A stretch of 63,394 bases of DNA, counting the filler. It is 7 parts of 7 records of this genome, joined end to end, with 100 filler letters (N's around TTAATTAATTAA, not from the genome) between each part and the next. Parts side by side here need not be neighbours in the genome. Positions count along the whole stretch, not along the records: positions 22,270 to 40,300 come from SRR20825010_62; 6 more parts are not named here. One strand, 5' to 3'. Position 1 is the first letter of the stretch. Every line of letters begins with the position of its first letter. The translations under genes and the position numbers were made by a program. Of this stretch, positions 5,648 to 40,300 are shown piece by piece. Below the pieces are notes generated by a model. That model ran no database searches. It worked only from the letters and a program-made list of their open reading frames with translations, and was not told the DNA's origin.

Positions 5648-6143
5648 ATGCACCTCATCGCATATAATGTGACCGTCTCTGTTGACGGTTTTATTTCCGG
5701 CCACAATGGGGACATTTCGAACTTTGCGCACAGTGGCCCGATATTCTGTCGCAATCATGGGACGAAACACCTATGAATTTGGCTATCGCTTTGGCATGCC
5801 CCCCGGCCAGAACCCTTATCCCCATTTAAGAACTGTCGTTTTGTCAAAATCTCTGAACCTTCCTGAAGAGAGCGAGGTGGAGCTACGCAAGACATGTGAC
5901 CTCGCTTTCCTTACGACTCTCAAGGCAACTTCTGATGGTCCAGTCCACCTCTTTGGCGGCGGGAATTTTGCAGGTGCGCTTTTGTCGATGGGAGCGATCG
6001 ATCTTTTGCGCCTATAGCGCGCGCCAATTCTACTGGGCGGCGGGGTCACGCTATTTGGAAGGACAAAGGTTTCTGCAAACCTCAGCCACATCCGGTCCCA
6101 CATGTATCCGTGCGGCTATGTGCTACAAGAGTTCGCTCTATAG
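5648..6143 (+). pseudogene. Dihydrofolate reductase/RibD C-terminal family pseudogene
   Basis: GAGGAG then ATG at 5648 gives MHLIAYNVTVSVDGFISG. A frameshift near 5740 leads into MGRNTYEFG...GGGNFAG. An in-frame TAG at 6015-6017 is followed by RAPILLGGGVTLF, and the final stop is at 6143. Confidence 0.85.
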
Positions 6144-6190
6144 GATTAAGTCGGCCCACTTGGACGCATTTTGCCAAATTACCCAATAGA

Positions 6191-6226
6191 AAAAACGCCC
6201 CGGCAGTTCCCTGCAGGGGCGCTTTT
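6191..6226 (-). terminator. Rho-independent terminator after DAHP synthase (possibly bidirectional)
   Basis: AAAAACGCCCCGGCAG-TTCC-CTGCAGGGGCGCTTTT hairpin. Confidence 0.7.
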
Positions 6227-6249
6227 CATTTCTCAGCGATCCGCCAACC

Positions 6250-22269: not shown

Positions 22270-22408
22270 GCCAAAGCTGAATGGTTATTTCCTGAAACAG
22301 ATCGTTGTGTGCGTCACTGTCGTTGGTATATAACCTACAGATTTTATGTACAATGTTTTGGTTTTCCTCTAATTGAGTTACAAAACTATGTTCCAGTTCT
22401 TTGTTCAA
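22270..22408 (-). CDS. ECF sigma factor, 5' fragment
   Basis: NIVHKICRLY...DLFQEITIQLW is sigma region 2. Confidence 0.85.
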
Positions 22409-22523
22409 TGGTTTTTTGTTGGCTTTTTTATTAGTGTTCTATTTAAACCCTTTGTTACAAAATTCCTAAAAAATAAGTGTACTTCCCCTACAAAGACTAA
22501 TTTTGTTATATAAATTTAAAAAG

Positions 22524-23795: not shown

Positions 23796-23822
23796 TGACT
23801 GCATTTTAAAGCAATATTTAGC

Positions 23823-24419
23823 TTAACAGTTTTTATATTTATCATAAAGTCCAATTCCTTGTTTAATCATTACTGAGCATTTCTCAAGGCGACTTTGTTG
23901 TGTAATTTCACGTTTGGCATTCCCAATATGTTCTGCATATTCACGCTGTTTACCTGGAGTAAGTTTATAAAATTGCACTTTTAAATTTTTGTCTTCTGAA
24001 AGTGCTTTATTAAAAATTTCAGGGATGGAAATATCTTTTTTCACCACTTTTTTTAATTCTTTTCCAGCTATCGAATTTGCTATTGCTTCTTCTACATACT
24101 CCAATACAAGTTTAGAATCTATGGTGTCGCTTTCTTCAAATCGCCACTGCCGTAGTGCTTTTGTAACCCCTTCTTGCGCATTGATAAGTTTATTGCTCTT
24201 GTCCTTTAAAAAAACGCCTTGATGAAACCAAATGGCAATGTGGTTTTTAAAATCGGACATTGCTGCAATCATTTTTCCATTAAGAGTATATGTTGGTTTT
24301 CCCCATTTTACTTCTTCTTTTAGCTCCGTTTTTTGAAAAACTTCGCGAAGCAATTGCAGCTTTTCTTTCCACTTTGTTTGCTTTGTTATAAAAGCATCTA
24401 CTTTTTCAGAATCGGTCAT
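23823..24419 (-). CDS. YdeI/OmpD-associated family protein
   Basis: KWGKPTY, WFHQGVFLKD and LTPGKQREY...AKRE motifs. Confidence 0.9.
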   Translation of the reverse strand: MTDSEKVDAFITKQTKWKEKLQLLREVFQKTELKEEVKWGKPTYTLNGKMIAAMSDFKNHIAIWFHQGVFLKDKSNKLINAQEGVTKALRQWRFEESDTIDSKLVLEYVEEAIANSIAGKELKKVVKKDISIPEIFNKALSEDKNLKVQFYKLTPGKQREYAEHIGNAKREITQQSRLEKCSVMIKQGIGLYDKYKNC

Positions 24420-24521
24420 ATTTTTTATTTTAATCCGAAGATACAATTTTCTCTAAGAATTTTTAAAATCGATTTTTCTCGTTTATTGTATAAAAATCCA
24501 TAATGCTTTTTTGTTGAAATA

Positions 24522-24558
24522 AAACATATATTTATTGTTTATCAATAAATATATGTTT
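24522..24558. promoter_or_regulatory. Perfect 16-bp inverted repeat, putative operator of DUF2975-XRE operon
   Basis: AAACATATATTTATTG-TTTAT-CAATAAATATATGTTT, adjacent to a -7-like TATATTCG element. Confidence 0.75.
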
Positions 24559-24587
24559 ATATTCGCAAAATAATTTTAAATCTTATT

Positions 24588-25115
24588 ATGATGAAAACAG
24601 CTATTATAATGAAAGTGATGAATGTTATTTTCTGGATAATCTTTGTCAGTTTGTGTATCAAAACCGGTGCCTTGATAGTTTCTTTTTTTATGAGTTTGTT
24701 TCCTAACCCTGATGATTTAGTAAACCTTTATTTGGGAGTTAGCTTTTTCGAATTGAACCCAATTTATATAATCCATTACATAGGTGTTCTCAGCTTTTTA
24801 ATGATATTGACGGGAATGAAAGCCTATATCGCCTATCTTGCTATTAAGCTTTTTATGAAATTTGATTTGAATAATCCATTCAACAAAAGGGTTGCAGACT
24901 TAATTTCAAAAATCAGTTATTTTGCATTGAGCATTGCTGTTGTCGCTTTAATTGCCAATCAATATACCGAACGTATAGTAAAAAAAGCAGCAGAAATGTC
25001 CCAAATAGATTGGGGTGCACAGGAATTTCTGTTTTTTGCGGGTATCATATATATTCTAGCTTTGGTTTTTAAAAGAGGAGTGGAAATTCAAAACGAAAAC
25101 GAATTAACAATATAA
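24588..25115 (+). CDS. DUF2975 membrane protein
   Basis: Four TM segments, NPF motif, and C-terminus VFKRGVEIQNENELTI. Confidence 0.9.
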   Translation: MMKTAIIMKVMNVIFWIIFVSLCIKTGALIVSFFMSLFPNPDDLVNLYLGVSFFELNPIYIIHYIGVLSFLMILTGMKAYIAYLAIKLFMKFDLNNPFNKRVADLISKISYFALSIAVVALIANQYTERIVKKAAEMSQIDWGAQEFLFFAGIIYILALVFKRGVEIQNENELTI

Positions 25116-25118
25116 AGT

Positions 25119-25322
25119 ATGCCAATAGTTGTAAACTTAGACGTAATGATGGCGAAACGAAAAATGTCATTAAATGAGCTTTCCGAAAAAGTGGGATTAA
25201 CCCTTTCCAACCTTTCCATTTTGAAAACTGGAAAAGCAAAAGCAATACGTTTTACCACTTTGGAAGCCATTTGCGAAGTGCTTGAATGTCAGCCTGGCGA
25301 TATTTTGGAATTTGTTTCTTGA
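25119..25322 (+). CDS. XRE/YozG-type HTH transcriptional regulator
   Basis: MPIVVNLDVMMAKRKMS...NLSILKTGKAKAIRFTTLEAIC...QPGDIL. Confidence 0.95.
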   Translation: MPIVVNLDVMMAKRKMSLNELSEKVGLTLSNLSILKTGKAKAIRFTTLEAICEVLECQPGDILEFVS

Positions 25323-25326
25323 ATTT

Positions 25327-25356
25327 ACAATTGAGCAATCCATTTTTACAGTTCGG
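25327..25356 (+). promoter_or_regulatory. LytTR binding site 1
   Basis: ACAATTGAG-N12-ACAGTTCGG, matching the AgrA-type 9-bp direct repeat with a 12-bp spacer. Confidence 0.8.
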
Positions 25357-25422
25357 TCTATTTTCTTCTGAAAAGTTATTTCAGAGTTTCATTTTTGTAC
25401 TGAAAATAAAACCAACCGCTAC

Positions 25423-27576
25423 ATGAAAATTTCAGTTATTACCCTTTTACTCATCGTTTTTCCGTCCTTGTTTTTTGCACAAACCATTATTTCAGGAACT
25501 GTTACAGACAACAAAGGCATCCCGATTATTGGCGCTAATGTATATTTAGATGGTACCTATGATGGCACTTCAACTACCGACAGCGGCACTTTTTCATTTG
25601 AAACCTCAGAAACGGGTACACAAACCTTAACCATTTCATACGTTTCTTTTGAAACAACTATTTTGATTAAAGAAGTTTCAGAAATGAAAAATCTAGCGAT
25701 TGTGCTTCGTGAAGATGTAAACTCATTAGAGACTGTAACTATTGCTGCGGGCTCATTTTCTGCAGGCGATAATAGTAAAATTTCAGTTTTAAAACCTTTA
25801 GATATTGTAACAACTGCAAGTGCTTTGGGTGATTTTGTAGGTGCACTACAAACGTTGCCAGGTACAACAACTGTTGCTGAAGACGGTCGTCTTTTTGTTC
25901 GTGGTGGCGATGCTAATGAAACTCAAATTTTTATTGATGGCATTCGTGTTTTTACGCCTTATGCTCCCTCAACAAATAATATCCCTACACGCGGCCGGTA
26001 CAGTCCTTTTTTGTTTGATGGAATTACATTTTCTACGGGTGGATATTCTGCGGAATATGGACAGGCGCTGTCTTCCGTATTGCTTTTAAATACAATTGAC
26101 GCACCTGATCAAGAAAAAACAGATATCGGTATTATGAGTGTAGGTGGTAGTTTAGGGCATACAAAAAAATGGGAGAAAAGCTCTTTAAGTTTAAATACTT
26201 CATATATAAACTTAGCTCCTTACAATGCTATTTTTCCGGATAGAAATGAGTGGCATAAGCCTTTTGAAACAGTTTCAGGTGAGGCAGTATTTCGTCAAAA
26301 AATTGGGGATGGATTGCTAAAAGTGTACGGTGCTTTTGATACTTCCAACTTTTCATTAACTCAAGAAGATATCAACCAAGCGGAAGGCGTAACTTTTAGT
26401 CTTAAAAACCAAAACTTTTATACAAACGCCAGCTATAGTGAAATGCTTGAAAAAGATTGGACAATTTTTGTAGGAGGAAGTTATACGCATGGCCGAACAA
26501 AAATAGGTATCGATGAAGCAACAATTAAAGATGTTGAAAATTCAGCCCACCTTAAATTCAAATTAAAAAAACGCTTTAGTAATTACTTTAAATTAAATTT
26601 TGGAGCAGAACAGTTTTTGACTGATTTCAACGAAAACTATAAAGAACCTAACTTTGACACAAAATTAGGTTTCAACAATGCTATTTCTGCAACTTTTACT
26701 GAAGCAGATATTATTTTTTCAAGAAAATTAGCTTTAAAGTTTGGTGTTCGAGGAGAATACAGCGAATTATTTAGCGAATTTACATTTTCACCAAGAGCTT
26801 CATTTGCATATAAAACAGGTAAAAATAGCCAGCTTTCATTAGCGTATGGAGACTTTTACCAACAACCTAATAGTGAAGTGTTGAAGTTTACAAATAGCTT
26901 AGAAGCACAAAATACCCAACATTACATTATGAACTATCAATATTCTGCAAACAACCGAATTTTTCGAGCTGAAGTTTATAGAAAACAGTATAATAATCTT
27001 GTAACATATTCGGAAGCGTTACCTAATGAAGCCTCTATTTTTTCGAATGACGGAAATGGATACGCCCAAGGCCTTGATTTATTTTGGCGGGATAATAAAA
27101 GTATTAAAAATGTAGATTATTGGCTGAGCTATTCCTATTTGGATACCGAACGAAAATATAAAAACTATCCAACGGAAGCCACGCCAAGCTTTGCAAATAC
27201 ACATAATTTTTCCGCTGTTGCGAAATATTGGATAGACGATTGGAAAAGTCAAGTAGGTTTTAGCTATCAATATGGTAGCGGCAGAACCTATACCGATGCA
27301 AACGAACCAGGATTTCTTCAGAAAAAAACAAGAGGATATAATAATGTAAGTTTAAACTGGGCGTATTTACTTTCACAACAGAAAATCCTTTATTTTTCAA
27401 TAAATAACGCTTTCGCTTTTAATAATATTAATGGGTATCAATACGCAAACACACCCGATGTTAATGGAAATTTTGCAAGACGAGAGCTTCAGCCAGCCGC
27501 TGATCAATTCTTTTTTGTAGGATTCTTTTGGACAATTAGCGACGACGGAAAAGACAATCAATTGAATAATTTATAA
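25423..27576 (+). CDS. TonB-dependent receptor
   Basis: Signal peptide, carboxypeptidase-regulatory-like N domain, plug (LFVRGG...IFIDG, GGYSAEYGQALS) and beta-barrel. Confidence 0.93.
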   Translation: MKISVITLLLIVFPSLFFAQTIISGTVTDNKGIPIIGANVYLDGTYDGTSTTDSGTFSFETSETGTQTLTISYVSFETTILIKEVSEMKNLAIVLREDVNSLETVTIAAGSFSAGDNSKISVLKPLDIVTTASALGDFVGALQTLPGTTTVAEDGRLFVRGGDANETQIFIDGIRVFTPYAPSTNNIPTRGRYSPFLFDGITFSTGGYSAEYGQALSSVLLLNTIDAPDQEKTDIGIMSVGGSLGHTKKWEKSSLSLNTSYINLAPYNAIFPDRNEWHKPFETVSGEAVFRQKIGDGLLKVYGAFDTSNFSLTQEDINQAEGVTFSLKNQNFYTNASYSEMLEKDWTIFVGGSYTHGRTKIGIDEATIKDVENSAHLKFKLKKRFSNYFKLNFGAEQFLTDFNENYKEPNFDTKLGFNNAISATFTEADIIFSRKLALKFGVRGEYSELFSEFTFSPRASFAYKTGKNSQLSLAYGDFYQQPNSEVLKFTNSLEAQNTQHYIMNYQYSANNRIFRAEVYRKQYNNLVTYSEALPNEASIFSNDGNGYAQGLDLFWRDNKSIKNVDYWLSYSYLDTERKYKNYPTEATPSFANTHNFSAVAKYWIDDWKSQVGFSYQYGSGRTYTDANEPGFLQKKTRGYNNVSLNWAYLLSQQKILYFSINNAFAFNNINGYQYANTPDVNGNFARRELQPAADQFFFVGFFWTISDDGKDNQLNNL

Positions 27577-27580
27577 AGTT

Positions 27581-27610
27581 ACAATTCAGTTGCTAAATGC
27601 AACAGTTGGG
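27581..27610 (+). promoter_or_regulatory. LytTR binding site 2
   Basis: ACAATTCAG-N12-ACAGTTGGG. Confidence 0.8.
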
Positions 27611-27680
27611 TTCATTGCTTTTTTAAGTATGCCTAACTTTGGTGAAATTTGAATAATTAAAAAACTTAATACTATATAAA

Positions 27681-28097
27681 ATGAAAACAATACTCACTTT
27701 AGTACTAATTTTTTCAGCTACAATGGTTCTTCAGGCACAGAATACTATTGAAGTTTCCATTTCTGGTTTCACAAATGATAAAGGAAAAGCGATGATTGGT
27801 CTTTATAATTCAGAAAATGACTTTCTAGAAAACGAATATAAATATGCAACACCAGCAATACTTAATAAACAATCAAAAGCTTCTTTTGCAGGAATTCCAG
27901 ATGGAGTATATGCCATTTCTGTTTTTCATGATGAGGATGATGATAATGAATTTGATATGTTTATGGGTTTTATTCCAAGGGAAGATTATGGAAACTCTAA
28001 TAATGTACCGCCAAGATTTGGTCCGCCTGAGTGGAGTGATGCAAAGTTTGAAGTTAAGGGAGGTGAAGTCACCACAATTGAAATTAAAATACTTTGA
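27681..28097 (+). CDS. DUF2141 secreted protein
   Basis: GVYAISVFHDED, GFIPREDYGNSNN and GPPEWSDAKF motifs. Confidence 0.92.
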   Translation: MKTILTLVLIFSATMVLQAQNTIEVSISGFTNDKGKAMIGLYNSENDFLENEYKYATPAILNKQSKASFAGIPDGVYAISVFHDEDDDNEFDMFMGFIPREDYGNSNNVPPRFGPPEWSDAKFEVKGGEVTTIEIKIL

Positions 28098-28156
28098 TTT
28101 TTTATACAGTTACAACAAATAAATTCTTGAGAATAGTAATCAATAAAACAATAATC

Positions 28157-28819
28157 ATGCAACACATACTTACTTATTTTACTTTGTTTTTTACTGCTTT
28201 AGTAATGCAAGCACAAACCGAACTTCCTGAAACTGGTTCAGATTCTGACCCTACAAAATATCAAATAGGAATGCAAAAAGCTTTTAAACTCTGGGAAGAA
28301 AACAAACCTTGGGAGGCTGCAAATGTTTTTGAAAGAATTGCCACTGCCGAACCTGATAATTGGTTGCCGCCTTATTACGTAGCTCAAATTAATATTATGT
28401 ATAGTTTTTCTGAAAAAGATGCTGTAAAATTAAAAGCACAATTAGATAAAGCTCAGGATTTTATAAATGATGCCACAACAATTTCAAAAGATAACCCAGA
28501 ATTACTAGTGCTTCAAGCGCAATGGTATACCGTTTGGATTGTTTTTGATGGACAGCAATATGGAATGAAATATTCTGCAAAAGCAGCTGCGCTTCACAAT
28601 AAAGCAAATGCCTTGGCTCCAAATAACCCACGTATTATTTTAGCAAAAGCTGAATGGGATATGGGTGGTGCAAAATACTTTGGGCAACCATTAGATCCCT
28701 TTTGTAAGGACATTCAGCGTGCCATAGATCTTTTTGCTACCTTTAAACCTGCTGGAGAATTTTACCCAACTTATGGTGAAGAAAGAGCCAAACAAGTTCA
28801 GGCAGAAAGTTGTAAATAA
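28157..28819 (+). CDS. Secreted TPR-like protein
   Basis: Signal peptide, FERIA..E..NWLPPYY and PNNPR motifs, all-helical. Confidence 0.85.
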   Translation: MQHILTYFTLFFTALVMQAQTELPETGSDSDPTKYQIGMQKAFKLWEENKPWEAANVFERIATAEPDNWLPPYYVAQINIMYSFSEKDAVKLKAQLDKAQDFINDATTISKDNPELLVLQAQWYTVWIVFDGQQYGMKYSAKAAALHNKANALAPNNPRIILAKAEWDMGGAKYFGQPLDPFCKDIQRAIDLFATFKPAGEFYPTYGEERAKQVQAESCK

Positions 28820-28890
28820 TCCTTTTTAGTATGAGTTCAAGAATTTATATAAAGAAAATTCTTGAGGCTTAATTAACAATAAATTAAACG

Positions 28891-30225
28891 ATGGTAATGC
28901 GTATTTTAAAAGATTTAGGAAAAGCTTTTTTTGTAGGAATACTTGTGTTTATTGTACTGGGCTTAATTCAGTATGCTAACGGTTATGAGTTTCAGAGTGG
29001 GAGCGAACTCCTTAAATTTTTTCTTTATAACCAACTATACTCTGTTGTGCTTTATATGCTGAATGCAAATTACTTTGGGTTTTTATTGAAGCAGTTTCCA
29101 AACCAAGTTTTTAAAGCGAAAAACCTTTTAAAAGGACTTTTTGGTGGAATTATAGTTACACTTATAGGCCTATTTTTTATACGCGTTTTTACTGAAGTTC
29201 TTATTGAAGGAAGAGATTTTTCCACATTTATAGCTTCAGAAAAGATCCAATATTATTATATCTCGTTTATCATTTCTATAGTTGTAACCATTATTTTTTA
29301 TTCGGTTTATTATTATAGAAATAAGCAGGAAAGTAAGGTAACAGAGCAAAAAATAATTGCTGGTACTGCTTCAGCTAAATTTGATGCGCTTAAAAATCAG
29401 CTCGATCCACATTTTCTTTTTAATAGCTTGAATGTACTTGTTAGTTTAATTGAAGAAAACCCTCAAGCAGCAACTCGGTTTACTACGTCACTTTCAAAAG
29501 TGTATCGGTATGTACTGGAGCAGAAAAATAAAGAATTAGTGACATTGGAGGAAGAATTGAAGTTTGCTGAGTTGTATATTTCGCTATTGGCAGTTCGGTT
29601 TGAGGATAGTATTATTTACACTCCACCTGTAACATTAAAAGATTCGCAAGCAAAGGTTGTGCCTCTATCGTTACAGCTTTTACTAGAAAATGCGGTAAAA
29701 CACAATCAAGTTACTCCTTCAAAAAAACTTCATATTACCATTACTGAAGAAAATGGAAACTTAATTATAACCAATAACAGTCAGCCAAAACAGGTTTTAA
29801 AAGAAAGTACCGGTGTAGGTTTACGGAATATTCGTGATAGATATGCGCTATTAACAAACCAGCCCGTACTTATTCGAGAAAACAGAAAGGAGTTTAGTGT
29901 AACGATTCCTGTTTTGACTCAAAACATAAAATTTATGAATACACAAGAAACTTTTATTTCAGAAAAAAAATATACGCTAGCTAAAACCAAGGTGGAAAAA
30001 TTAAAAGCATTTTATGTTCACCTTACAATATATTTACTATTTGTACCTGTCTTTATTTACTTAAATTACATTTCAAATGCTGGGTTTCCTTGGGCATTGT
30101 TTCCTATTGTAGGATGGGGATTTGGTGTAATGGGCCATGCAGCTGAAACATTTAATTACAATCCTTTTTTCGGGAAAGATTGGGAGGAACGTAAAATCCG
30201 TGAATTAATGGATAAGGAAGATTAA
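28891..30225 (+). CDS. LytS-type histidine kinase with C-terminal 2TM domain
   Basis: Four TM segments, LKNQLDPHFLFNSLN, LLENAVKHN and GVGL motifs, and a C-terminal 2TM domain ending WEERKIRELM. Confidence 0.93.
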   Translation: MVMRILKDLGKAFFVGILVFIVLGLIQYANGYEFQSGSELLKFFLYNQLYSVVLYMLNANYFGFLLKQFPNQVFKAKNLLKGLFGGIIVTLIGLFFIRVFTEVLIEGRDFSTFIASEKIQYYYISFIISIVVTIIFYSVYYYRNKQESKVTEQKIIAGTASAKFDALKNQLDPHFLFNSLNVLVSLIEENPQAATRFTTSLSKVYRYVLEQKNKELVTLEEELKFAELYISLLAVRFEDSIIYTPPVTLKDSQAKVVPLSLQLLLENAVKHNQVTPSKKLHITITEENGNLIITNNSQPKQVLKESTGVGLRNIRDRYALLTNQPVLIRENRKEFSVTIPVLTQNIKFMNTQETFISEKKYTLAKTKVEKLKAFYVHLTIYLLFVPVFIYLNYISNAGFPWALFPIVGWGFGVMGHAAETFNYNPFFGKDWEERKIRELMDKED

Positions 30226-30228
30226 ATT

Positions 30229-30258
30229 ACAGTTCATCCTTTTAATATTACGATTGGG
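30229..30258 (+). promoter_or_regulatory. LytTR binding site 3
   Basis: ACAGTTCAT-N12-ACGATTGGG. Confidence 0.72.
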
Positions 30259-30324
30259 AGACTTCAATTTTAAAAAGGAACTAAGCTGTATTATTTTTAT
30301 CCTATAATTTAAAACAATCTAAAA

Positions 30325-30630
30325 ATGGAATTTGAAAATAAAGAAAATAAGTATCTTAAAGCTAAAGAACGTGTAGCTGAAATTAAGAAGTTTTACACCA
30401 GTCTTATATTTTATGTAGTATTTATTTGTGCCCTAGCAGGATTAAATTATTATGTAAATGAGCTTCGCCACCCTTGGTTTTTATGGGCAGCATTTGGTTG
30501 GGGAATCGGAATCTTTTTTCAAGCGTTAAAAGCTTTTCGCTGGACACCTTTTATAGGAAAAAATTGGGAAGAAAGAAAGATGAAGCAGTTTATGGAAGAA
30601 GAGGAATACAACAACAATAACTCCAATTAA
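30325..30630 (+). CDS. 2TM domain protein
   Basis: AKERV..IKKFY, WGIG and WEERKMKQFM motifs. Confidence 0.9.
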   Translation: MEFENKENKYLKAKERVAEIKKFYTSLIFYVVFICALAGLNYYVNELRHPWFLWAAFGWGIGIFFQALKAFRWTPFIGKNWEERKMKQFMEEEEYNNNNSN

Positions 30631-30631
30631 G

Positions 30632-30961
30632 ATGAATTATTCAAAAAAAATGAAATTTGAGAGTGCCCAAAAAAGGGTTGAAGCATTAAAAAGTTTTTAT
30701 AAGCATGTACTGGTTTACGGTATAGTAAACATTGCACTTTTCGTTGTTAGAGGACAGATACTTGAGTTTTTTATGAACGAATCAACAGATAAAAACTTTA
30801 TTGAGTGGATAGATTGGAATATTTTAATAGTTCCTATTTTTTGGGGAATTGGTTTGTTATTTCACGCAGCAAAAACGTTTAAATATAAGTTGAAGTTTAT
30901 AAAAAACTGGGAAGAAAACCAACTAAAAAAATTCATAACTAAAGAACAAAACGAACGCTAA
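30632..30961 (+). CDS. 2TM domain protein
   Basis: AQKRV..LKSFYKH, WGIGLLFH and WEENQLKKF motifs. Confidence 0.9.
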   Translation: MNYSKKMKFESAQKRVEALKSFYKHVLVYGIVNIALFVVRGQILEFFMNESTDKNFIEWIDWNILIVPIFWGIGLLFHAAKTFKYKLKFIKNWEENQLKKFITKEQNER

Positions 30962-30963
30962 AA

Positions 30964-31272
30964 ATGGAAACCGAAAAGAGTTTGGCTTATTTAAGAGCAA
31001 AGAAAAAAGTAGAAACACTTAAAAGTTTTTACAGTCATTTGGTGGTTTATTTACTAATTAATACCGCAATCATACTTGTTTCTGCGAATGTTTTTAATGA
31101 TAAACCAATAAATTTTTCACACTGGAGTATGTATTTTACCGCAATGTTTTGGGGTATAGGTTTGGTTTCACACGCACTCTATGTACTCTTTGTTATGAAT
31201 TTTAAAAATAATATTTTTAAAAACTGGGAAGAGAAAAAACTAAAACAATTTCTAGAAGAAGATCAATCATAA
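30964..31272 (+). CDS. 2TM domain protein
   Basis: AKKKV..LKSFYSH, WGIGLVSH and WEEKKLKQF motifs. Confidence 0.9.
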   Translation: METEKSLAYLRAKKKVETLKSFYSHLVVYLLINTAIILVSANVFNDKPINFSHWSMYFTAMFWGIGLVSHALYVLFVMNFKNNIFKNWEEKKLKQFLEEDQS

Positions 31273-31298
31273 AATAATTTACCAGCAACCACAAATTA

Positions 31299-32054
31299 AT
31301 GAATGTATTAATAATTGAAGACGAAAAACCATCTGCACGCTATTTGCAGCGTATGCTAGAAAAACAAGACGTTAAGGTTAGTCAAATGCTTCACAGTGTA
31401 GAAGAAGCTGTAAATTGGTTTCAAAATAACCCACATCCAGACCTTATTTTTTTAGACATTCAATTGAGTGATGGACTTTCTTTCGAAATTTTTGACGCCG
31501 TTGAAGTACACAGCGCCATAATATTTACTACTGCATTTGACGAATATGCTTTGCAAGCATTTAAATTGAATAGTATTGATTATTTATTGAAACCAATTGA
31601 TGAAGACGAATTATATGTAGCAGTTGTAAAGTATAAATCGTTTAATCCAACAGTTCAAAATGTTCAGTTTAATTTTGAGGATATTAAAAAAATGCTTGTA
31701 AACCCTGTAGAAAGAGCGTATAAAAAACGTTTTACAACAAAAATTGGCCAGCATATAAAGATGATTTCTGTAGATGAAATTGAATGCTTCTATTCTGAAA
31801 ATAAAGGCACCTACGCACACACTGTAGACGGACGTAATTATTTGTTAGAAACTACTCTAGAGCAATTGGAGCAAGAGCTTTCGCCAGAATTATTTTTTAG
31901 AATAAGTAGAAAATTCTATATAAATATTGAAGCTATAAAAGATATTATTTCATACACAAACTCACGACTTCAATTAAAATTGAATAACTATAATGAGCAG
32001 GAAGTTATCGTAGCGCGTGAACGGGTGAAAGATTTTAAACTTTGGCTAGAATAG
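31299..32054 (+). CDS. LytTR family response regulator
   Basis: REC domain (IIEDE, FLDIQL, YLLKP) plus LytTR domain (FFRISRKFYIN). Confidence 0.96.
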   Translation: MNVLIIEDEKPSARYLQRMLEKQDVKVSQMLHSVEEAVNWFQNNPHPDLIFLDIQLSDGLSFEIFDAVEVHSAIIFTTAFDEYALQAFKLNSIDYLLKPIDEDELYVAVVKYKSFNPTVQNVQFNFEDIKKMLVNPVERAYKKRFTTKIGQHIKMISVDEIECFYSENKGTYAHTVDGRNYLLETTLEQLEQELSPELFFRISRKFYINIEAIKDIISYTNSRLQLKLNNYNEQEVIVARERVKDFKLWLE

Positions 32055-32056
32055 CA

Positions 32057-33280
32057 CTATTTTTTTTCTTTATTAATTTCAATTCTATTATCCTGAAACG
32101 AAGAAGGCAACAATTTTGGAATAAATTTCACTAATAAAGGAAGTAAAACACTACCACCAGGAAGCAAAAAAATAGTCAATGACGGAATGCTTTTACAAAC
32201 GTCCAAAAGTTGCTCCTTAACTTTGTTTTTTTCTTCGGGAGATAAATCTCGTAAAGTAGATTGCCCCAAAAGTACAACCAACTCGCCACTTTCTTCCAGC
32301 TCGCGTGCTAAACGGTCTTTATTTCTTATAATTAATAATTTTACAGTTGAAGCAGATTGCTTGTAAAACTGCTTCACAGGGTGCGAATATTCAAAAAGAA
32401 GTATTTTTTCAGTGTATTTTTTTGAAAAATTAGCAAGACACTCCAAGCTATTGTTTAAATCTTCTTCGGAATAATTTAAAGTTAAAACTAATTGCTGTAA
32501 AAACTGATGTTCCGTTTCATCAAGTTTTAAATCTTCCCAAATAGTAAGACAGCATAAATCCAAGATATACTTTCTTTCCAAGGAGTTTTCAGTAATATTT
32601 AAATAGTTTAAACTCTCTAAAAAAGTAGAAAAACTACCATCGGTTTTGGCAACTATATATTCAGATGAGGTTTCGAAAAGCTCAATTAGTAATTTATCGT
32701 ATTTAGATTTTTTCTTTTTAGATTTCAATGTGTAAAAACAAGCTGTAAGTACAATTGTTTCTTGTTGTTTGTAATAGTTTTTGGCATTGCTTGGTTCTTT
32801 TTGCCAATGTTTATAAGCAAGAACATCCAAATATAAAAGTGCATGCGTAAGCAGTGAAATTGTATTTTTCTTTAATAACGAATTTGTTTCTTGCAAGCGC
32901 GCCGATAGAATATGCTCTAAAGTATTTGAAGGACTTTGTGAAAGTGTAAATTTTTGAAAAAAACCTGTTTTACCTTTTTCTATATGCCTGTAAAAAGAAA
33001 GAATATCTGTTATAGCTTCCGAATTGCTGGATTCTGGATTTTGCTGATAAAATTGAAAAAGTAAGGAGTGAAAAAGATTTATTTTTGTGAGTTCTTCTTT
33101 AGTAAGTTTTAAGTTGCCAAGCGATTTTTTTGGTAAGGCAGAAACAGAAACACCATAAATAAACCCAGTGTTTTTAAGCGCTTCATAGAATTTTAAGTTA
33201 GTTTGAAAAGAATCAATTAATTCATTCTTTTCAAAAAGATTTAAAAACTTTAAAATCCAATCGGCTGCAGAGGGGTTCAT
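32057..33280 (-). CDS. LETM1-related (biofilm-associated) protein
   Basis: C-terminal QLLDVCKSIPSLTIFLLPGGSVLLPLLVKFIPKLLPSSF is LETM1-like. MNPSA..WI N-terminus. Confidence 0.82.
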   Translation of the reverse strand: MNPSAADWILKFLNLFEKNELIDSFQTNLKFYEALKNTGFIYGVSVSALPKKSLGNLKLTKEELTKINLFHSLLFQFYQQNPESSNSEAITDILSFYRHIEKGKTGFFQKFTLSQSPSNTLEHILSARLQETNSLLKKNTISLLTHALLYLDVLAYKHWQKEPSNAKNYYKQQETIVLTACFYTLKSKKKKSKYDKLLIELFETSSEYIVAKTDGSFSTFLESLNYLNITENSLERKYILDLCCLTIWEDLKLDETEHQFLQQLVLTLNYSEEDLNNSLECLANFSKKYTEKILLFEYSHPVKQFYKQSASTVKLLIIRNKDRLARELEESGELVVLLGQSTLRDLSPEEKNKVKEQLLDVCKSIPSLTIFLLPGGSVLLPLLVKFIPKLLPSSFQDNRIEINKEKK

Positions 33281-33354
33281 TGAAATATTTATGATTATTT
33301 TAGGCGTTCAAACGCTGGTTTTGCTACGTTAACAAAAGATTAACGTTTTTGAAA

Positions 33355-33383
33355 AAACCATGCACTCACATTTAAACGTAAGT
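33355..33383 (+). promoter_or_regulatory. Putative ECF (SigK-type) promoter of DUF4331 operon
   Basis: AAACC-N17-CGTAAGT. A second copy lies at 36153. Confidence 0.65.
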
Positions 33384-33426
33384 ATAGCGAACAAACAAAA
33401 ATAATTAATAAAAACTAACAAAAAAG

Positions 33427-34113
33427 ATGAAAAATTCAAAACTTTTTGCAGTAATCGGTGGACTGGGCATAGCCGCACTATCGGTATTTTTAATATCTGC
33501 GGATCACATTGACGCACCAGCAGTTGCAGGTACAACAGCAGATATTACAGACTTTTACGCCTTTCAAGGCGAGAACAGTAATAACTTTGTGCTAGCAGCA
33601 AATATACAAGGACTTTTGCCTCCGGGTACTCCTACAGACCAAGCCGAATTTGATGAAACGGTTTTGATAGAATTCAATATTGACAGAAATAACGACCTTA
33701 AAGAAGATTTTGTTATTCAGGCAATAAAACGTGGTGATTCAATGTATTTCTTTGGCCCCTCGGTTCCAGCTATGACAGGCGCACAAAGTACTATTGCTAC
33801 AACTGATCCTATTAGTGTAAAAATTTCTACAAAAGATGATGTTCAGATAACAGAAATGAATGGCATGAAATTTTTTGCGGGACCAAGAGAAGATCCTTTT
33901 TTCTTTGATTTTAACCAATACAACGCAGTGCTTTCTGGTACCGCAACAGGTTTTAACAATCCTGGGGATGATACTTTTGCAGGAACAAATGTATTGAGTA
34001 TTGTTGTGGAATTTCCAAAGGCTATGTTACCAGGTGGAGCTACGGGCGTAAACCCATTTGCAGCAAGTACACCTATCTATAATGTATGGGTAGAGGCTAA
34101 AAGAAAACAATAA
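33427..34113 (+). CDS. DUF4331 family protein
   Basis: Signal peptide, then SADHIDAP, ADITDFYAF, FAGPREDPFFFDF and DTFAGTNVLSIVVE. Confidence 0.9.
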   Translation: MKNSKLFAVIGGLGIAALSVFLISADHIDAPAVAGTTADITDFYAFQGENSNNFVLAANIQGLLPPGTPTDQAEFDETVLIEFNIDRNNDLKEDFVIQAIKRGDSMYFFGPSVPAMTGAQSTIATTDPISVKISTKDDVQITEMNGMKFFAGPREDPFFFDFNQYNAVLSGTATGFNNPGDDTFAGTNVLSIVVEFPKAMLPGGATGVNPFAASTPIYNVWVEAKRKQ

Positions 34114-34141
34114 AAATTGCTAACACTAAAAATTTAAAAAG

Positions 34142-34768
34142 ATGAAAACATTTAAATATATATACCTTTTTGCCGCAATAACAACGTCAGTATTGTTTGT
34201 GCAATGTACCGATGATGACGATAATATAATTACGAACCCAACTTGTACCGATGGAATTTTAAACGGTGATGAAACAGAAATTGACTGTGGCGGAACAGCT
34301 TGTGCACCTTGTGGAGAAGTAGTGGATTTTAGCGGAACTTACATACAGGAAGACCAAATGGGGCGTCCTGGTATAAATACCGTATTTGGATCAGAAGGAT
34401 TTAAAGATGCATTTAATGTTACTGTACCATCTGCAATGCAAGTAGCTTTCCAAGCAAAATTTGAAGCAAAATTATTGGCATTGAATTCTGGATATACTAC
34501 TAATGCTTTAGGTTTAACTGCAGAACAATTCACAACAGTACTTTCTAACGATGTTTTATGGTTAGCTGAAACAGGGATAACTACTTACTTTAACGGAACC
34601 GAAATATTGACTGGTAGAACCTTGAATGATGATGTGATTGATGTATCCTTACTTTTAATTTTTGGAGGTCCTGACGGATCTGAAAATCCAACATTAACAA
34701 GTGATGGAGTGTCAGGTAATGATGCTTCGTTCTCTGCGTCATTCCCATATATGGCTGGACCATTTTAA
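34142..34768 (+). CDS. DUF4331 C-terminal-type lipoprotein with Cys-rich insert
   Basis: Lipobox-like FVQC, then QEDQMGRPGINTVF, GRTLNDDVIDVSL and FPYMAGPF. Confidence 0.85.
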   Translation: MKTFKYIYLFAAITTSVLFVQCTDDDDNIITNPTCTDGILNGDETEIDCGGTACAPCGEVVDFSGTYIQEDQMGRPGINTVFGSEGFKDAFNVTVPSAMQVAFQAKFEAKLLALNSGYTTNALGLTAEQFTTVLSNDVLWLAETGITTYFNGTEILTGRTLNDDVIDVSLLLIFGGPDGSENPTLTSDGVSGNDASFSASFPYMAGPF

Positions 34769-34786
34769 TAAGTAAAGTTTTAATAC

Positions 34787-34816
34787 AAAAAAGAGAGCGT
34801 TTCGTTCTCTTTTTTT
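34787..34816 (+). terminator. Intra-operon hairpin/terminator
   Basis: AAAAAAGAGAGCG-TTT-CGTTCTCTTTTTTT. Confidence 0.65.
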
Positions 34817-34866
34817 GTTTAAAATATATTTAAATGAAAAATTTGACCAACACAAATACCTTCAAA

Positions 34867-36144
34867 ATGAAAAATTTAATACCCTTATTATTTTTTGCTG
34901 TTTTTATTGGATGTCAAGAAAAGACTGAAAAAATAACCGATAGTAAAGATTATAACCCGTATTTAATTACCACTAACAATCCTTCAAAAGAAGCACTTTT
35001 ATCTGAGTTTGAATTTTGGGAGAAAAGATTCAATAACGATTCAACTAACTTGATGGAAATGACCCGTATGTCTAGCCTTCATGCAAGAATGTTTGGAATA
35101 AACGGAACTATTTCAGAATTAAAAACTTCAGAAGAATTAATTAAAAAGGCATACGCTGTTTCAGCACGTAATAAAGATACCTATTTGCGCAGTTTAGCAC
35201 ATAATTATATTTCACAACACCGTTTTAAGGAAGCAAAAGTTTTATTGGATAGCGCATATACCTATCCAGATAATCATAAAGAAACGGAGATGATGCTTTT
35301 TGATGTGGCGATGGAATTGGGCGACTATCAGCTTGCAGATACGCTGTTGGGAAAAGTAAAGGCTCCAAAAAATTTTAATTATTTAATTCGTTTGGCAAAA
35401 TGGAGCGACCATAATGGAAATCTTGATGCAGCCATAAAATATATGGAACAAGCTAAAACAATTGCTGAAGCACGAAAAGACAAAAGTTTAATGGTTTGGG
35501 TTTATAGCAATATTGGCGATTTTTATGGTCATGCTGGACGTATTCAAGATTCTTATAAAAGTTATTTGAATACATTGGCAATTCAACCAGACAACCATTA
35601 TGTAAAAAAACAACTTGCATGGATGATTTATTCTCTTGAAAAAAATACCAAGGAAGCAAATCGTATTTTAGATTCCGTACAGGTAAATCATAATATACCT
35701 GATTATCATTTATTGAAAGCTGAAATGGCTGAATATGATGGCGATATTTCTAAAGCAAACAATGAATATGAAAAATTTATAAAAGCTACAGATAATGTGG
35801 CCTATGGTGGAATGTATACTACCTACCTTATATCAATTTATGCAGAAAAGGATCCAAAAAAAGCACTTGAATTAGCCGAAAAAGAAATTATGAATCGCGC
35901 TACACCAGAAACGTATCAATTGCTTGCATATGCCCAATTAAAATCTGGCAATAAAGAAGTTGCTCTTAATACAATTGAAACGTTTGTTGTTGGAAAAACT
36001 TCAGAGCCTAATGCGCTTTTTCATTCAGCTTTAATATATAAAGCAAATGGAATGAATGCTGAGTTAAATTCATTAAAAACTGAACTGTTAGAAGCATTTT
36101 ATGAATTGGGACCTTTAAAAGCAAAAGAAATAAAAATGTTATAA
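34867..36144 (+). CDS. TPR lipoprotein (cell surface protein)
   Basis: Lipobox FIGC followed by multiple TPR-like helical repeats. Confidence 0.85.
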   Translation: MKNLIPLLFFAVFIGCQEKTEKITDSKDYNPYLITTNNPSKEALLSEFEFWEKRFNNDSTNLMEMTRMSSLHARMFGINGTISELKTSEELIKKAYAVSARNKDTYLRSLAHNYISQHRFKEAKVLLDSAYTYPDNHKETEMMLFDVAMELGDYQLADTLLGKVKAPKNFNYLIRLAKWSDHNGNLDAAIKYMEQAKTIAEARKDKSLMVWVYSNIGDFYGHAGRIQDSYKSYLNTLAIQPDNHYVKKQLAWMIYSLEKNTKEANRILDSVQVNHNIPDYHLLKAEMAEYDGDISKANNEYEKFIKATDNVAYGGMYTTYLISIYAEKDPKKALELAEKEIMNRATPETYQLLAYAQLKSGNKEVALNTIETFVVGKTSEPNALFHSALIYKANGMNAELNSLKTELLEAFYELGPLKAKEIKML

Positions 36145-36152
36145 CAAAATGA

Positions 36153-36180
36153 AAACCAAACTACTACTTTTTCCGTAAGT
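36153..36180 (+). promoter_or_regulatory. Putative ECF promoter for downstream sRNA
   Basis: AAACC-N16-CGTAAGT, the same motif as at 33355. Confidence 0.65.
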
Positions 36181-36184
36181 GTTA

Positions 36185-36302
36185 ATGAGGTTGGTTATCT
36201 ATCGAATAATTGATAGATATTTTAAAACCGGAAATACCGGTTTTCAGAGTTTTTTTGTTAGTTGGAGCGCCCGTCATAATTTTGATGGGCGCTACTTTTT
36301 TT
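36185..36302 (+). ncRNA. Putative ECF-dependent small RNA
   Basis: Own promoter, hairpins at 36196-36219 and 36224-36244, a single-stranded U/G-rich seed at 36245-36265, and a terminator stem at 36266-36293 followed by a U-tract. Confidence 0.6.
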
Positions 36303-36325
36303 AATATTTTTAAAAATATATTTTC

Positions 36326-36357
36326 AAAAAAAAACTTGAGCGTGAACTCAAGTTTTT
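36326..36357 (-). terminator. Terminator for sigma/anti-sigma operon
   Basis: AAAAAAAAACTTGAG-CGTGAA-CTCAAGTTTTT. Confidence 0.75.
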
Positions 36358-36377
36358 AAATATAACTTTTCTTTTTC

Positions 36378-37175
36378 TTAAATAGTTATTGTTCCTAACG
36401 TATATAATTGTGATAGGGTAGGTATTTTACTTCCTCCAGCAGGTTCTAAAGTTATTCCAAAAGCTTCAGGATCTGGGAAATTTTCGAACTTATAAATTCC
36501 GTTTTCGCCGGCTTCATTTTCGGCAGCAATTAAACCTACACTTGTTGGCGTAAGAGGTTCCATTTTTAACGACCATAGTTGGTAAACTTTTCCTGGAGGT
36601 GGCGTAGGTAAACCTTTAACATCTATGTAAGCTATGTTGTTTTTTTTATCTAAATACACTTTTGCATAAGCTTCAGGTGCAACAGCTTGATTTCCGGGAA
36701 GTGTATAGGTTTGGTATTCTTTAGACCTTAATACATCCAGTATTTTAGTGTTAGCTACTAATTGATTTTCAATAACATTTTTATCTTCTTTTAAAACGGT
36801 GTTTTCTGTTGAAGTTATTTGTAGTGAATTATTTAAATCATTATTTTGTTTTAACATCCATAAGATACCACCCATAAATAGTATAGCGGCTGCCCAACCT
36901 GTAATGGCTGACCAATTAAGTGTTTTTACCTTGGTATCACCAATATTCTTAACATATCTAATTGAGTTGAGAATGTGTGTCCATGTCATTGCTTGCACGG
37001 GAGGCGCAACATTTTCAGCAATGTGAATAAGAGATTTTTCAATTTGCTCAACTTCTCGCTTCACTTCTTCGCTATTGGCAATTGCAGCTTCCACTTCAAT
37101 AACTTCTTCTTGTGGCAATGCGCCACAAACGTACATTTCTAATTTCCCTGATGCTATAATTTCTTCAGTATTCAT
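36378..37175 (-). CDS. Anti-sigma-K factor, RskA family
   Basis: N-terminal SGKLEMYVCGAL, one TM segment, and C-terminal KVYQLW...AFGITLEPAGGS..PT. Confidence 0.92.
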   Translation of the reverse strand: MNTEEIIASGKLEMYVCGALPQEEVIEVEAAIANSEEVKREVEQIEKSLIHIAENVAPPVQAMTWTHILNSIRYVKNIGDTKVKTLNWSAITGWAAAILFMGGILWMLKQNNDLNNSLQITSTENTVLKEDKNVIENQLVANTKILDVLRSKEYQTYTLPGNQAVAPEAYAKVYLDKKNNIAYIDVKGLPTPPPGKVYQLWSLKMEPLTPTSVGLIAAENEAGENGIYKFENFPDPEAFGITLEPAGGSKIPTLSQLYTLGTITI

Positions 37176-37179
37176 AATT

Positions 37180-37713
37180 TTATCCTAGTACCATTACCCG
37201 TAATTCATTTATACAGGTTCTGTTTCTTGTTTTTAAAGTTCCTAAAGGTATCTCAAGTGTTTTTGATGCTTCCGCTTGTGTATATCCTTTAAAATATAAA
37301 AGGTCAATTATTTTTATACATGCTGGTTTTAAGGCATCTACAAATTTTTTGAGACCAATTGCATTTGTTTTTGTGTTTAAGCTATCTGAGGATGATAGTA
37401 TATCTACGAAGTTTGTGGTGCTTAGGTTTTTTTTAGTGTTTTTAAATGCTTTTGACCTAGTTTGATCTATAGCTGTATTTCTTGCAATGTTTAATAGCCA
37501 AGTAAAAAACCGTCCTTTATTTACAGCATAAGAGCCGGAATTATTCCATACCTTTATGAATACGTCTTGTAGCACTTCTTCAGCAACACTTTCATCTAGT
37601 ACAATACTGTATATTATTCCATAAATAGCTTCACTATACATGGTGTATATGCGGGAAAAGGCTTTCTCATTCCCGTTTTGCATCGCTATGATGAGATCAT
37701 TGGGTTGTTCCAT
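37180..37713 (-). CDS. ECF sigma factor (SigK-like)
   Basis: AEEVLQDVFIKVW, FTWLLNIARN.AID and IPLGTLKTR motifs. Confidence 0.95.
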   Translation of the reverse strand: MEQPNDLIIAMQNGNEKAFSRIYTMYSEAIYGIIYSIVLDESVAEEVLQDVFIKVWNNSGSYAVNKGRFFTWLLNIARNTAIDQTRSKAFKNTKKNLSTTNFVDILSSSDSLNTKTNAIGLKKFVDALKPACIKIIDLLYFKGYTQAEASKTLEIPLGTLKTRNRTCINELRVMVLG

Positions 37714-38025
37714 AAATTTATTCTTCGAAAGTAAAAGTAATAAATTAATAGCTTAAGTTTCATTTGATTTTTTGATTTGTAGGAAATTAATTTTTAGGTC
37801 ATTTTATTTGAATTAAATCTCATTTTAATCATTCATTGACTTCATTAACCTTAAAGATGTTTATCAGAACTTTTTGTTTGTAAATGGTTGTTTTTCAGTA
37901 ATTAATAATTTGTAGGAAAGGTTTAAAATGATTTTTTTTAGCGTTTTTTCAGTATTTTTACAACTGCCGCATTTCATATAACATGCGCTTTGCGCTAAAA
38001 AAACAAACCTGAAAAAATTAATATT

Positions 38026-40300
38026 ATGAAACAAACTAATTGGATTTTATCCATAACTCTACTCTGTTTTTTTTGTAGCAATGTTGCAATTGCTCAAAAT
38101 TACACAACGGCAATCAATAAACAATTAAATGACCTAGCTGCCCAAGATAAATTGGCCCCCCAAGATGCTAATTGGATTTTAAGCTCACATCACACCAGTT
38201 CTATTAGTGGAGTGGAGCATGTATATTATAGTCAAAAATTCAACGGACTTGAAGTATACGGTACCGCATCTGGTGTACATTATCTTCCTAATGGGCAAGT
38301 AATCTCTAAAAACAATAGTTTTATAAAAAATGTAGCACAGAAAGTTTCTGGTTCTTCTTCTCCAGGATTAACTCCTGAAGAAGCAATTCGTTCCGCAGCA
38401 ACTCAGCTAGGATATAAAATTGTAAAACCCATAAGCGTGTTAGAGAGTAAAAAAGGAAACGGTAAAGAGTTTCTTTTAAGCGATGGTGGAATATCATCAT
38501 TACCTATTCCTGCAAAATTATTGTATATTATTACTAAAAATGATCGTGTAGCATTAGCTTGGGATGTTTCAATAAAAAATATTGAACCAGGAAGTGGCGA
38601 ATGGTGGAGTTTAAAAGTAGATGCTACTACAGGAAGTATTATCGATAAAGTTAATTGGATGCTAAGCTGTAGCCCTGGTCATGACCATGATCATGACCAT
38701 GATTCAAAAACGCTAAATTTCAATGACAATTTATACGATATTCCAAATTATAAGGAGACTCTAGCTACTAAACCAGCTGCATGTACAACTTGTTACGAGG
38801 TGTTTGAAATGCCTAAGGAAAGCCCATATTATGGCGATAGAACAATCGTAAATTCTCCAGCAAACCCCATAGCATCTCCTTATGGTTGGCATGATACCAA
38901 TGGTGTCGCTGGTGCAGAATATACAGTTACCAGAGGTAACAATGTAAATGCTTTTGATAATGTTACAGACTTTCAACCAGATGGTGGCGCTGATTTAGAT
39001 TTTTCAGGCTTTCCATTTTCACAAACTTATACGAATACCAATCAATATGAGTCTGCCTCAATTACTAATTTGTTTTACTTGAACAACATTTATCATGATA
39101 TCATGCATTTTTACGGTTTTGATGCTCCAGCTGGGAATTTCCAAGAAAACAATTATGGAAATGGTGGTGCTGGAAGCGATTCTGTGAATGCACAGGCACA
39201 AATGGGTATAGTGTGTAATGCTTTTTTTGGAACACCTGCAGATGGTGGAAACCCTGTAATGGAAATGTATGTATGTGATGATAAAGACGGTGATTTTGAA
39301 GCAACTGTTGTATTTCATGAATACTCACATGGTACTTCAAAGAGGTTAACAGGAGGTGCGTCTAATATAAATGTCTTGTTTAATAATGAACAAATGGGCG
39401 AAGGCTGGAGTGATTTTTATGGAATAGTATTTACTATTAGGTCTAGTGATACTGGAGAGACACCACGTGCTATTGGAAATTACCTTAAAGGACAGGGAAT
39501 CGATGGTATAGGAATAAGAACTTTTCGTTATTCTACAGATATGACCGCTAATCCTCAAACATATAATTCTATTAAAGGTACGGTAGGAGCTCATGCCCTT
39601 GGTGAAGTATGGGCTGGAATGCTTTGGGAGCTTACTTGGGGTTTAATAGACGAACACGGGTTCAATGATAACCCTTATGAATTTACAGGCGATATAGCAC
39701 AAGACAAAGGAAACACAATGGCTGTTGCAATTGTAACTGAATCATTAAAATTACAACCAGGTAGCCCAGGATTTGTAGATGGAAGAGATGCTATACTTGC
39801 AGCAGATCAAGCAATTTATGGTGGTGCAAACGCATGTATTATTTGGAAAGCTTTTGCAAAAAGAGGTGTAGGTTATAGTGCTAACCAAGGTTCTTCAAAT
39901 AACAGAAACGATGGAACTGAAGCCTTTGATTTGCCTGCTCCAGAAACCACAGACCTAACTGATATTTGTGTTGGAAGCGAAGTAACAGTTACAGCAACCC
40001 CAATAAGCGCATCTAGCACCATAAACTGGTATGATGCAGAAACGGGAGGAACTTTATTGTTCACTGGTGCTTCATATACTTTTACCCCAACAGTAAATAC
40101 AGATCTTTATGCTGAAGAAGTACCTGCAACTGGCGCTGGCTGTTTTACAAGAGCACACACACAGGTTCTTGTAGATGCTATTAATCCAGAAATTGTATGT
40201 CCTGCAAATAGTGTTGTTGAAGTAAATCAAGGGGAGCAATATACATTGCCAGATTATACTACAGCTGCAACAGCAACAGATAACTGTACTACTTCTCCTG
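38026..40300 (+). CDS. M36 (fungalysin) metallopeptidase, 3' truncated, probable T9SS substrate
   Basis: Signal peptide, FTP/PepSY propeptide, ASPYGWH, HEYSHG, EGWSDF, FAKRG and C-terminal Ig-like domains. Confidence 0.92.

Follow-up and report, generated by a model that had tools for sequence, protein, structure and literature searches.

The window analysed here, a stretch of 63,394 nucleotides assembled from seven parts, carries a gene of about 117 bases that probably specifies a non-protein-coding RNA, an undescribed regulator in the stress response of the adjacent sigma factor. In many genera of marine Flavobacteriaceae it retains the promoter assigned to that sigma. The best overall explanation, which we favor with moderate confidence, is that it encodes an sRNA that stands alone and acts in trans, serving the neighboring SigK-like/RskA-like system as its non-coding arm. 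Its conserved part is mainly an unpaired core 5' of a terminator, and the hairpins are conserved less. If true, this would give a SigK/RskA-type sigma an sRNA arm. It would also supply a sigma group that lacks a consensus in the ECF classification with both a candidate regulon and a promoter consensus (AAAACC-N16-CGTAnnT), and cultured strains would then allow a direct test of the way a U-rich seed chooses targets among uniformly A-rich leaders. Marine Flavobacteriaceae do not use Shine-Dalgarno initiation, and to our knowledge almost no sRNAs have been characterized in them.

The locus and the predicted RNA

Between positions 7439 and 59374 the window consists of several contigs of differing GC content with paired runs of N between them, and the contig holding the sRNA covers 22270-40300 only. 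This contig is close to Aequorivita sp. Q41 (RskA 94% identical), whose genome (G001) stood in for the window organism in genome-wide work, with targets sought by pattern. The neighbors named in the original prediction were recovered with Pfam (two DUF4331 proteins, a TPR protein, RskA_C, and an ECF sigma), and the top NCBIfam model for the sigma was SigK PRK09646, at 113 bits, under its cut-off of 226. The ECF-type promoter reported after the TPR stop codon and its copy before the DUF4331 operon were both where they had been placed, as were the two hairpins, the U/G-rich stretch, the GC-rich terminator with its U-tract, and the separate terminator of the convergent anti-sigma gene (Table 1).

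Table 1. Positions of features in the window (numbering of the whole stretch).
Feature	Position	Strand	Remarks
ECF-type promoter, DUF4331 operon	33354..33383	+	17-nt spacer; copy of sRNA promoter
DUF4331-leader stretch of 13 nt, exact complement of core; candidate target	33413..33425	+	directly 5' of start codon
Two DUF4331 genes	33427-34113 and 34142-34768	+	PF14224 (Pfam)
Terminator-like hairpin between second DUF4331 gene and TPR gene	34787..34817	+	similar hairpins visible in most relatives
TPR gene upstream of sRNA	34867..36144	+	Pfam; start probably 34867 rather than 34834
ECF-type promoter of sRNA	36152..36180	+	-35 AAAACC 36152-36157, 16-nt spacer, -10 CGTAnnT 36174-36180
Predicted sRNA, about 117 nt	36186..36302	+	5' end placed by inference at 36184-36187
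5' motif GAGGUUGGUU	36187..36196	+	second GUURGUU-type copy, partly accessible
Hairpin 1	36196..36219	+	fold
Hairpin 2, CCGG stem	36224..36244	+	fold
Conserved unpaired core CAGAGUUUUUUUGUUAGUUG, presumed seed	36245..36264	+	U/G-rich; 0.97 identity in 16 homologues
Intrinsic terminator and U-tract	36266..36302	+	stem 36266-36293
Separate terminator of convergent sigma/anti-sigma operon	36327..36357	-	fold z -4.6
RskA-like anti-sigma gene	36378..37175	-	PF10099, E 2e-18
ECF sigma gene, SigK-like, with Cys132 and Cys167	37180..37713	-	Pfam, NCBIfam
Third promoter copy, inside sigma coding sequence, pointing into rskA	37402..37430	-	synonymous-codon bias

Two exact copies of the promoter pattern lie in the window, where 0.05 would be expected, and none of 100 shuffles reached that count; this test is partly circular because the pattern came from the original prediction, and the main evidence is the cross-species tests below. 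The start of the RNA was placed by analogy with two mapped ECF-type (SM6) promoters of Flavobacterium psychrophilum (PMC9723704), using their distance from CGT to start. The predicted folding energy of the 117-nt RNA is -41.2 kcal/mol (z -5.5), a large share of which is owed to the terminator (alone z -6.3); the part 5' of the terminator has a z of -2.55, and 4 of 200 shuffles were as stable. The terminator varies in sequence (0.59 identity) yet its pairs are kept. The core is predicted to be mostly unpaired, as had been proposed, with a mean unpaired probability of 0.76 in the window RNA and above 0.5 in 20 of 24 folds, and the motif GUURGUU is found twice within the RNA.

A hand-anchored count for hairpin 1 (21 sequences, seven core pairs, three rows without an anchor omitted) gave five cells changed on both sides and five broken, and the hairpin is absent or replaced in more distant loci. 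For hairpin 2 the same kind of count, in which L211 was mis-anchored, gave three cells changed on both sides and several G-U changes, and 95.5% of cells are paired on the MAFFT alignment. Broken pairs were few in these counts. Over that whole alignment 88% of cells pair and three pairs change on both sides, a number reached by 45 of 500 shuffles; the covariation suggested as a check does not exceed that of shuffles there. RNAalifold missed hairpin 1 because of misalignment, and model R1 was therefore built without it. The hairpins are plausible, with weak covariation that does not amount to proof.

The absence of a long open reading frame held across species, as there is no conserved frame in 24 homologues, and held less well in the window, which has a 39-codon ATG-led frame from 36185. 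It is highly improbable that the locus is a leaderless small-protein gene starting at this ATG: the frame does begin at the predicted transcription start, but it reads through the terminator, an ATG lies in the first three bases of only 7 of the 24 homologues (frames of 5 to 39 codons, products mostly unrelated), and eight have no ATG at all.

Conservation, independence from the operon, and the adjacent sigma factor

Fifty-one loci were gathered by RskA homology alone (11, plus 40 of another 62 strong matches from 151 sampled genomes of the family). Promoter, U/G-rich core and terminator occur together in 27 of the 51, and in 21 of 21 where the sigma is at least 65% identical to that of the window. 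Across 16 close homologues, chosen by protein homology, identity to the window is 1.00 for the -35 box, 0.49 for the spacer, 0.88 for the -10 box, 0.94 for the 5' GGTTGG, 0.68-0.77 for the hairpin stems, 0.97 for the core and 0.59 for the terminator. Conservation had been expected of both promoter and hairpins; the promoter is kept, and the hairpins proved to be the less conserved part. The promoter consensus is AAAACC-N16-CGTAnnT, with a 16-nt spacer in 27 of 28 sRNA promoters and a final T, which the search did not require, in 27/27 sRNA and 29/29 operon promoters with that spacer; the operon promoter is present at 33 of the 39 loci holding the first DUF4331 gene.

Of 401 Flavobacteriaceae genomes, 35 had a single match to the promoter-plus-core pattern; the reversed control gave one match. 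These 35 comprise 27 at the sigma/DUF4331 locus, two relocated full copies, four at a second locus, and two inside open reading frames. A covariance model found matches in 28 of 151 genomes at E <= 0.05, of which the best 15 (E <= 1e-5) are all at the sigma/DUF4331 locus, and in neither A. sp. Q41 nor U. litoralis was there a second copy with a score better than E 0.15. Outside the sigma/DUF4331 locus the core lies 5' of 1 in 101 terminators, and no copies of it were found in viral contigs.

The unit persists where the TPR gene and the operon promoter have been lost (L005, L089 and L102, on three separate branches of a quick IQ-TREE tree), is kept without the operon in L107, L113, L114, L200 and L297, and is relocated intact in L197 and L220. 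These losses and relocations, which the unit survives, bear on whether it is merely the 3' UTR and terminator of the DUF4331-TPR operon with a silent relic of a promoter. We consider that improbable: eight loci (L104, L110, L111, L121, L124, L127, L298 and L299) do have the core and terminator after the last operon gene, mostly a TonB-receptor gene, with no nearby promoter match, and the folding signal is largely that of the terminator, but the conserved promoter boxes flank a free spacer, and the terminator-like hairpin before the TPR gene should limit read-through from the DUF4331 genes towards the sRNA. Five further loci have a degenerate version of the unit, and in L008 and L098 the sigma and operon are present and the RNA is absent. 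An ECF-promoter-led non-coding unit, independent of the operon as originally proposed, is well supported by these comparisons, and it is very probably transcribed as an sRNA.

Three Aequorivita species (A. xiaoshiensis, A. sinensis and A. sediminis; L009-L011) have no sigma orthologue anywhere in the genome (best E about 1e-15 vs 1e-111). They keep both DUF4331 genes and have lost the TPR gene, the promoters and the RNA, although other ECF sigmas persist there. The three form one clade, sister to L005, in which the TPR gene and operon promoter are already gone and the sigma and RNA are retained; the RNA was therefore lost with the sigma and not with the TPR gene, as one event. A truncated RskA gene remains in L009-L011 around 5970-6550 (C-terminal 182-residue match), and since this remnant sits between them the RNA and the sigma were removed by separate deletions.

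The third promoter copy lies about 250 nt before the end of the sigma gene, faces rskA, and is complete in 41 of 49 sigma genes. Its codons are nearly fixed (AAC 47/48, CTN 47/48, TTC 47/48, GTA 48/48) against backgrounds of 42%, 48%, 21% and 40%, respectively, elsewhere in the same genes; the counts are not independent, as the genes are related, yet these span 51-96% protein identity. A promoter inside the sigma gene with biased synonymous codons ties the motif to the adjacent sigma, and a probable role is induction by the sigma of its own anti-sigma, a negative feedback. The sRNA is likewise likely to be controlled by this sigma, with indirect support from the single co-loss and from the internal promoter. 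Cys132 and Cys167 are both present in 48 of 49 sigma orthologues, and because such a cysteine pair is described as redox-sensing in SigK (PMC7826278), the signal may be oxidative or envelope stress.

Genes behind the promoter motif, picked by eye among the matches listed, include SelR/MsrB, CMD-family, DUF547, ferritin-like and PHO4 genes. The candidate regulon comprises loci L284, L287, L288, L290 and L285, where CMD-family, DUF547, PHO4, ferritin-like and SelR genes lie immediately behind the promoter, and several of these genes are clustered with a methyltransferase, a radical-SAM/DUF3641 protein and a glycosyltransferase.

In two genomes, G025 and G060, the motif is present at a second locus and only distant RskA homologues were found, so another sigma may read it too. 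That a different ECF sigma of the same promoter preference, such as a paralogous RskA-type pair (about 27% identical), is the main driver of the RNA seems quite unlikely. Distant RskA homologues are widespread in the family and ECF regulons may overlap (Guerin et al. 2021, PMC9723704), but the two genomes may be incomplete, the motif within the adjacent sigma gene is under synonymous-codon constraint, and the sRNA and its promoter are gone where that sigma is gone and other ECF sigmas remain.

By gene context only, the sigma fits the description of ECF214s1 (Casas-Pastor et al. 2021, PMC7826278), a Bacteroidetes ECF group with an RskA-like anti-sigma in +1 and DUF4331 nearby; the text for group ECF214 gives no consensus promoter and names no sRNA.

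The core and its possible targets

The complement of the core is A/C-rich, of the type AACUAACAAAAAA. Adenines at -3, -6, -12 and -13 promote translation initiation in F. johnsoniae (PMC6847099), the closely similar core of the F. psychrophilum sRNA Rfp18 (below) has predicted targets at start codons, and the FopS sRNAs of Bacteroides thetaiotaomicron block translation by pairing with initiation regions (PMC11697453). For these reasons base-pairing with A-rich translation-initiation regions is favored as the mode of action, and we regard it as reasonably probable.

The DUF4331 leader of the window has a perfect 13-nt match to the core at the start codon (duplex -14.4 kcal/mol), which suggested that silencing of its own operon might be the main role of the RNA. 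This was rejected as the match is not a conserved feature: only the window, L001 and L124 have it in perfect form, and most close relatives have a mismatch. Eight of 28 DUF4331 leaders fall within the best 5% of 784 leaders for pairing with the core, and the mean shuffle z of these leaders is -1.1 against -0.35 (p 0.012, from related sequences); leaders at loci without the RNA score like most of those with it. Pairing with TPR leaders is patchy and strong only in L002 and L003.

Core-complementary sites before ATG were not enriched in 27 genomes (82 vs 113 for the control), nor was a second genome-wide pattern of complementary sites (18 vs 34); both patterns ended in a fixed base class, and some sites were dropped as a result. 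Leaders of signal-peptide genes pair no better after control for base composition (p 0.33). Eight start regions picked by hand for the complementary motif, a biased choice, all precede genes for exported-like proteins that are not mutual orthologues. Searches with the complementary-site patterns found no conserved distant mRNA target.

An alternative, which we judge unlikely, is that the RNA is independent and sigma-driven but that its core binds a protein, for example of the RRM type, as a decoy or chaperone-loading site in place of a pairing seed. Such a site would suit an invariant core with no conserved target, and the GUURGUU motif is present twice in the RNA, ends several mRNAs together with a terminator in Aequorivita sp. 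Q41 (L177, L178 and L188), and does so for the TonB-receptor gene of the DUF4331 operon in other genera; the FopS sRNAs moreover bind the RRM protein RbpB (PMC11697453). Against it, Rfp18 combines a nearly identical core with start-codon predicted targets and an effect of its deletion on mRNAs (PMC9723704), and by the example of FopS, binding and pairing are not exclusive (PMC11697453).

With base-pairing as the preferred reading, oxidative or envelope stress would probably cause the anti-sigma to release the sigma. The freed sigma would then transcribe the DUF4331 operon, its own anti-sigma gene from the internal promoter, distant stress genes, and the sRNA. The sRNA would offer a single-stranded U/G-rich core directly 5' of its terminator, and this core may pair with the A/C-rich initiation regions that Bacteroidota use instead of a Shine-Dalgarno sequence, altering the translation or stability of several mRNAs that probably encode exported proteins.

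Described RNAs and related units

A literature search in which subscription papers were mostly uncovered returned no description of this RNA, in line with the original prediction, no sRNA arm of a SigK/RskA-type sigma, and no main text on DUF4331. Rfam likewise gave no family at gathering score, the best for the window being BTnc231 (22.2 bits vs 80.4), and no matches in ten loci.

MicA, RybB and MicL of enterobacteria are sigma-E-dependent sRNAs and form the non-coding arm of an ECF regulon. They differ from the RNA here in belonging to another phylum, in an anti-sigma of the RseA and not the RskA type, and in being Hfq-dependent, and they have no sequence relation to it.

The closest described RNA, one the original prediction did not name, is Rfp18 (THC0290_N_0179) of Flavobacterium psychrophilum. 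For its highest-ranking targets, pairing is predicted around the start codon, and two metalloprotease mRNAs were less abundant after its deletion (Guerin et al. 2021, PMC9723704). Both are RNAs of Flavobacteriaceae of about 100-115 nt, with a 5' hairpin region, a core (AGUUUUUU(G/U)GUURGUU) and then a terminator, and 14 of 15 positions are shared in the U/G-rich core. The two differ in promoter class: Rfp18 has a sigma-A promoter (PMC9723704), with TAnnTTTG in 74 of 74 homologues and the ECF motif AAAACC-N16-CGTAnnT in none, whereas the sRNA here has an ECF-type promoter and no TAnnTTTG upstream. They also differ in locus, as 80 Rfp18 loci, drawn from metagenomes, contained no DUF4331, TPR, RskA or sigma match, and the genomic position of Rfp18 held no such RNA in five of five genomes checked here. 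The labels of the Rfp18 neighbors are, we assume, hppD and DUF3108. Just 5' of the core, Rfp18 has a CAU that could cover an AUG, and the sRNA here has CAG. An Rfp18 model (R2, 18 homologues) scored 15-29 bits on the seven listed of eight sRNA loci, L131 being the one with no score listed, and 107-119 bits on held-out Rfp18 homologues, and R1 scored at most 21 bits on 20 Rfp18 loci. Identity with Rfp18 was rejected on promoter class, locus and these cross-model scores; a 20-nt Rfp18 motif matched none of the 151 family genomes.

Two further comparisons are more distant. Rfp11 of F. psychrophilum is an sRNA from an ECF-type promoter (SM6, CGT box) with a GUUAGUU motif at its start (PMC9723704); compared by eye only, its promoter has neither AAAACC nor CGTAnnT as such, and the portion of its sequence covered has no such core before the terminator. 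FopS and GibS of B. thetaiotaomicron, also from Bacteroidota, have a single-stranded seed that pairs with initiation regions of envelope-protein mRNAs, but FopS exists in 14 copies with sigma-A promoters and a 5' seed (PMC11697453), whereas the sRNA here has one copy each in A. sp. Q41 and U. litoralis, is ECF-led, and has its core adjoining the terminator. ECF-led sRNAs are a known kind, with Rfp11 as an example in Flavobacterium. The unit described here has its own conserved ECF promoter and terminator and no conserved open reading frame, and is probably a real, undescribed sRNA family of that kind.

A joint reading, which we offer tentatively and consider doubtful as a whole, is that Flavobacteriaceae have a portable anti-initiation-region seed, complementary to A/C-rich leaders, that is wired to sigma-A in Rfp18 and to a SigK-like sigma here. 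Its core and terminator would form the 3' end of an operon or a stand-alone gene depending on the genus, and a regulon might include several such RNAs, such as an smpB-neighboring RNA, the L283 unit, and the units whose promoter lies within the final codons of another gene. On this view the locus would capture a regulatory RNA in passage between 3' UTR and independent gene; of what the sigma expresses locally, the RNA would be the component that survives loss of the operon.

Several units with some of these elements were seen elsewhere. A second candidate sRNA of about 100 nt with the same promoter, a common UG(U)GAGGUU motif and a terminator is present at L262:1501-1640, L268:1501-1650, L281:986-1130 and L282:1015-1165; in L262 and L268 it adjoins a histidine-phosphatase-like gene, and its other neighbor there is presumably an smpB-like gene. 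L283:1031-1160 (minus strand) holds a third unit of promoter, UUUUGGUUGGUUAGUU core and terminator, which scores 34 bits with the Rfp18 model. At L203, L206 and L207 (about 1500-1660) and at L300:1926-2080, the last codons of a gene for an exported protein of 360-390 aa with no Pfam family contain the promoter motif, and the core and terminator come next, which may yield a 3'-derived sRNA from an intragenic promoter. In A. sp. Q41 the homologue (L178) has the core and no promoter match. L181 (G001:C2 about 1061100-1061230) is a stand-alone unit on the strand opposite both neighbors, with a 5' UGAGGUGGGG motif, core and terminator in an Rfp18-like layout and no known promoter motif found. L109:6287-7240 contains two tandem units of ~400 nt with no long open reading frame, each with an ECF promoter, a common internal motif, a core-like stretch and a terminator.
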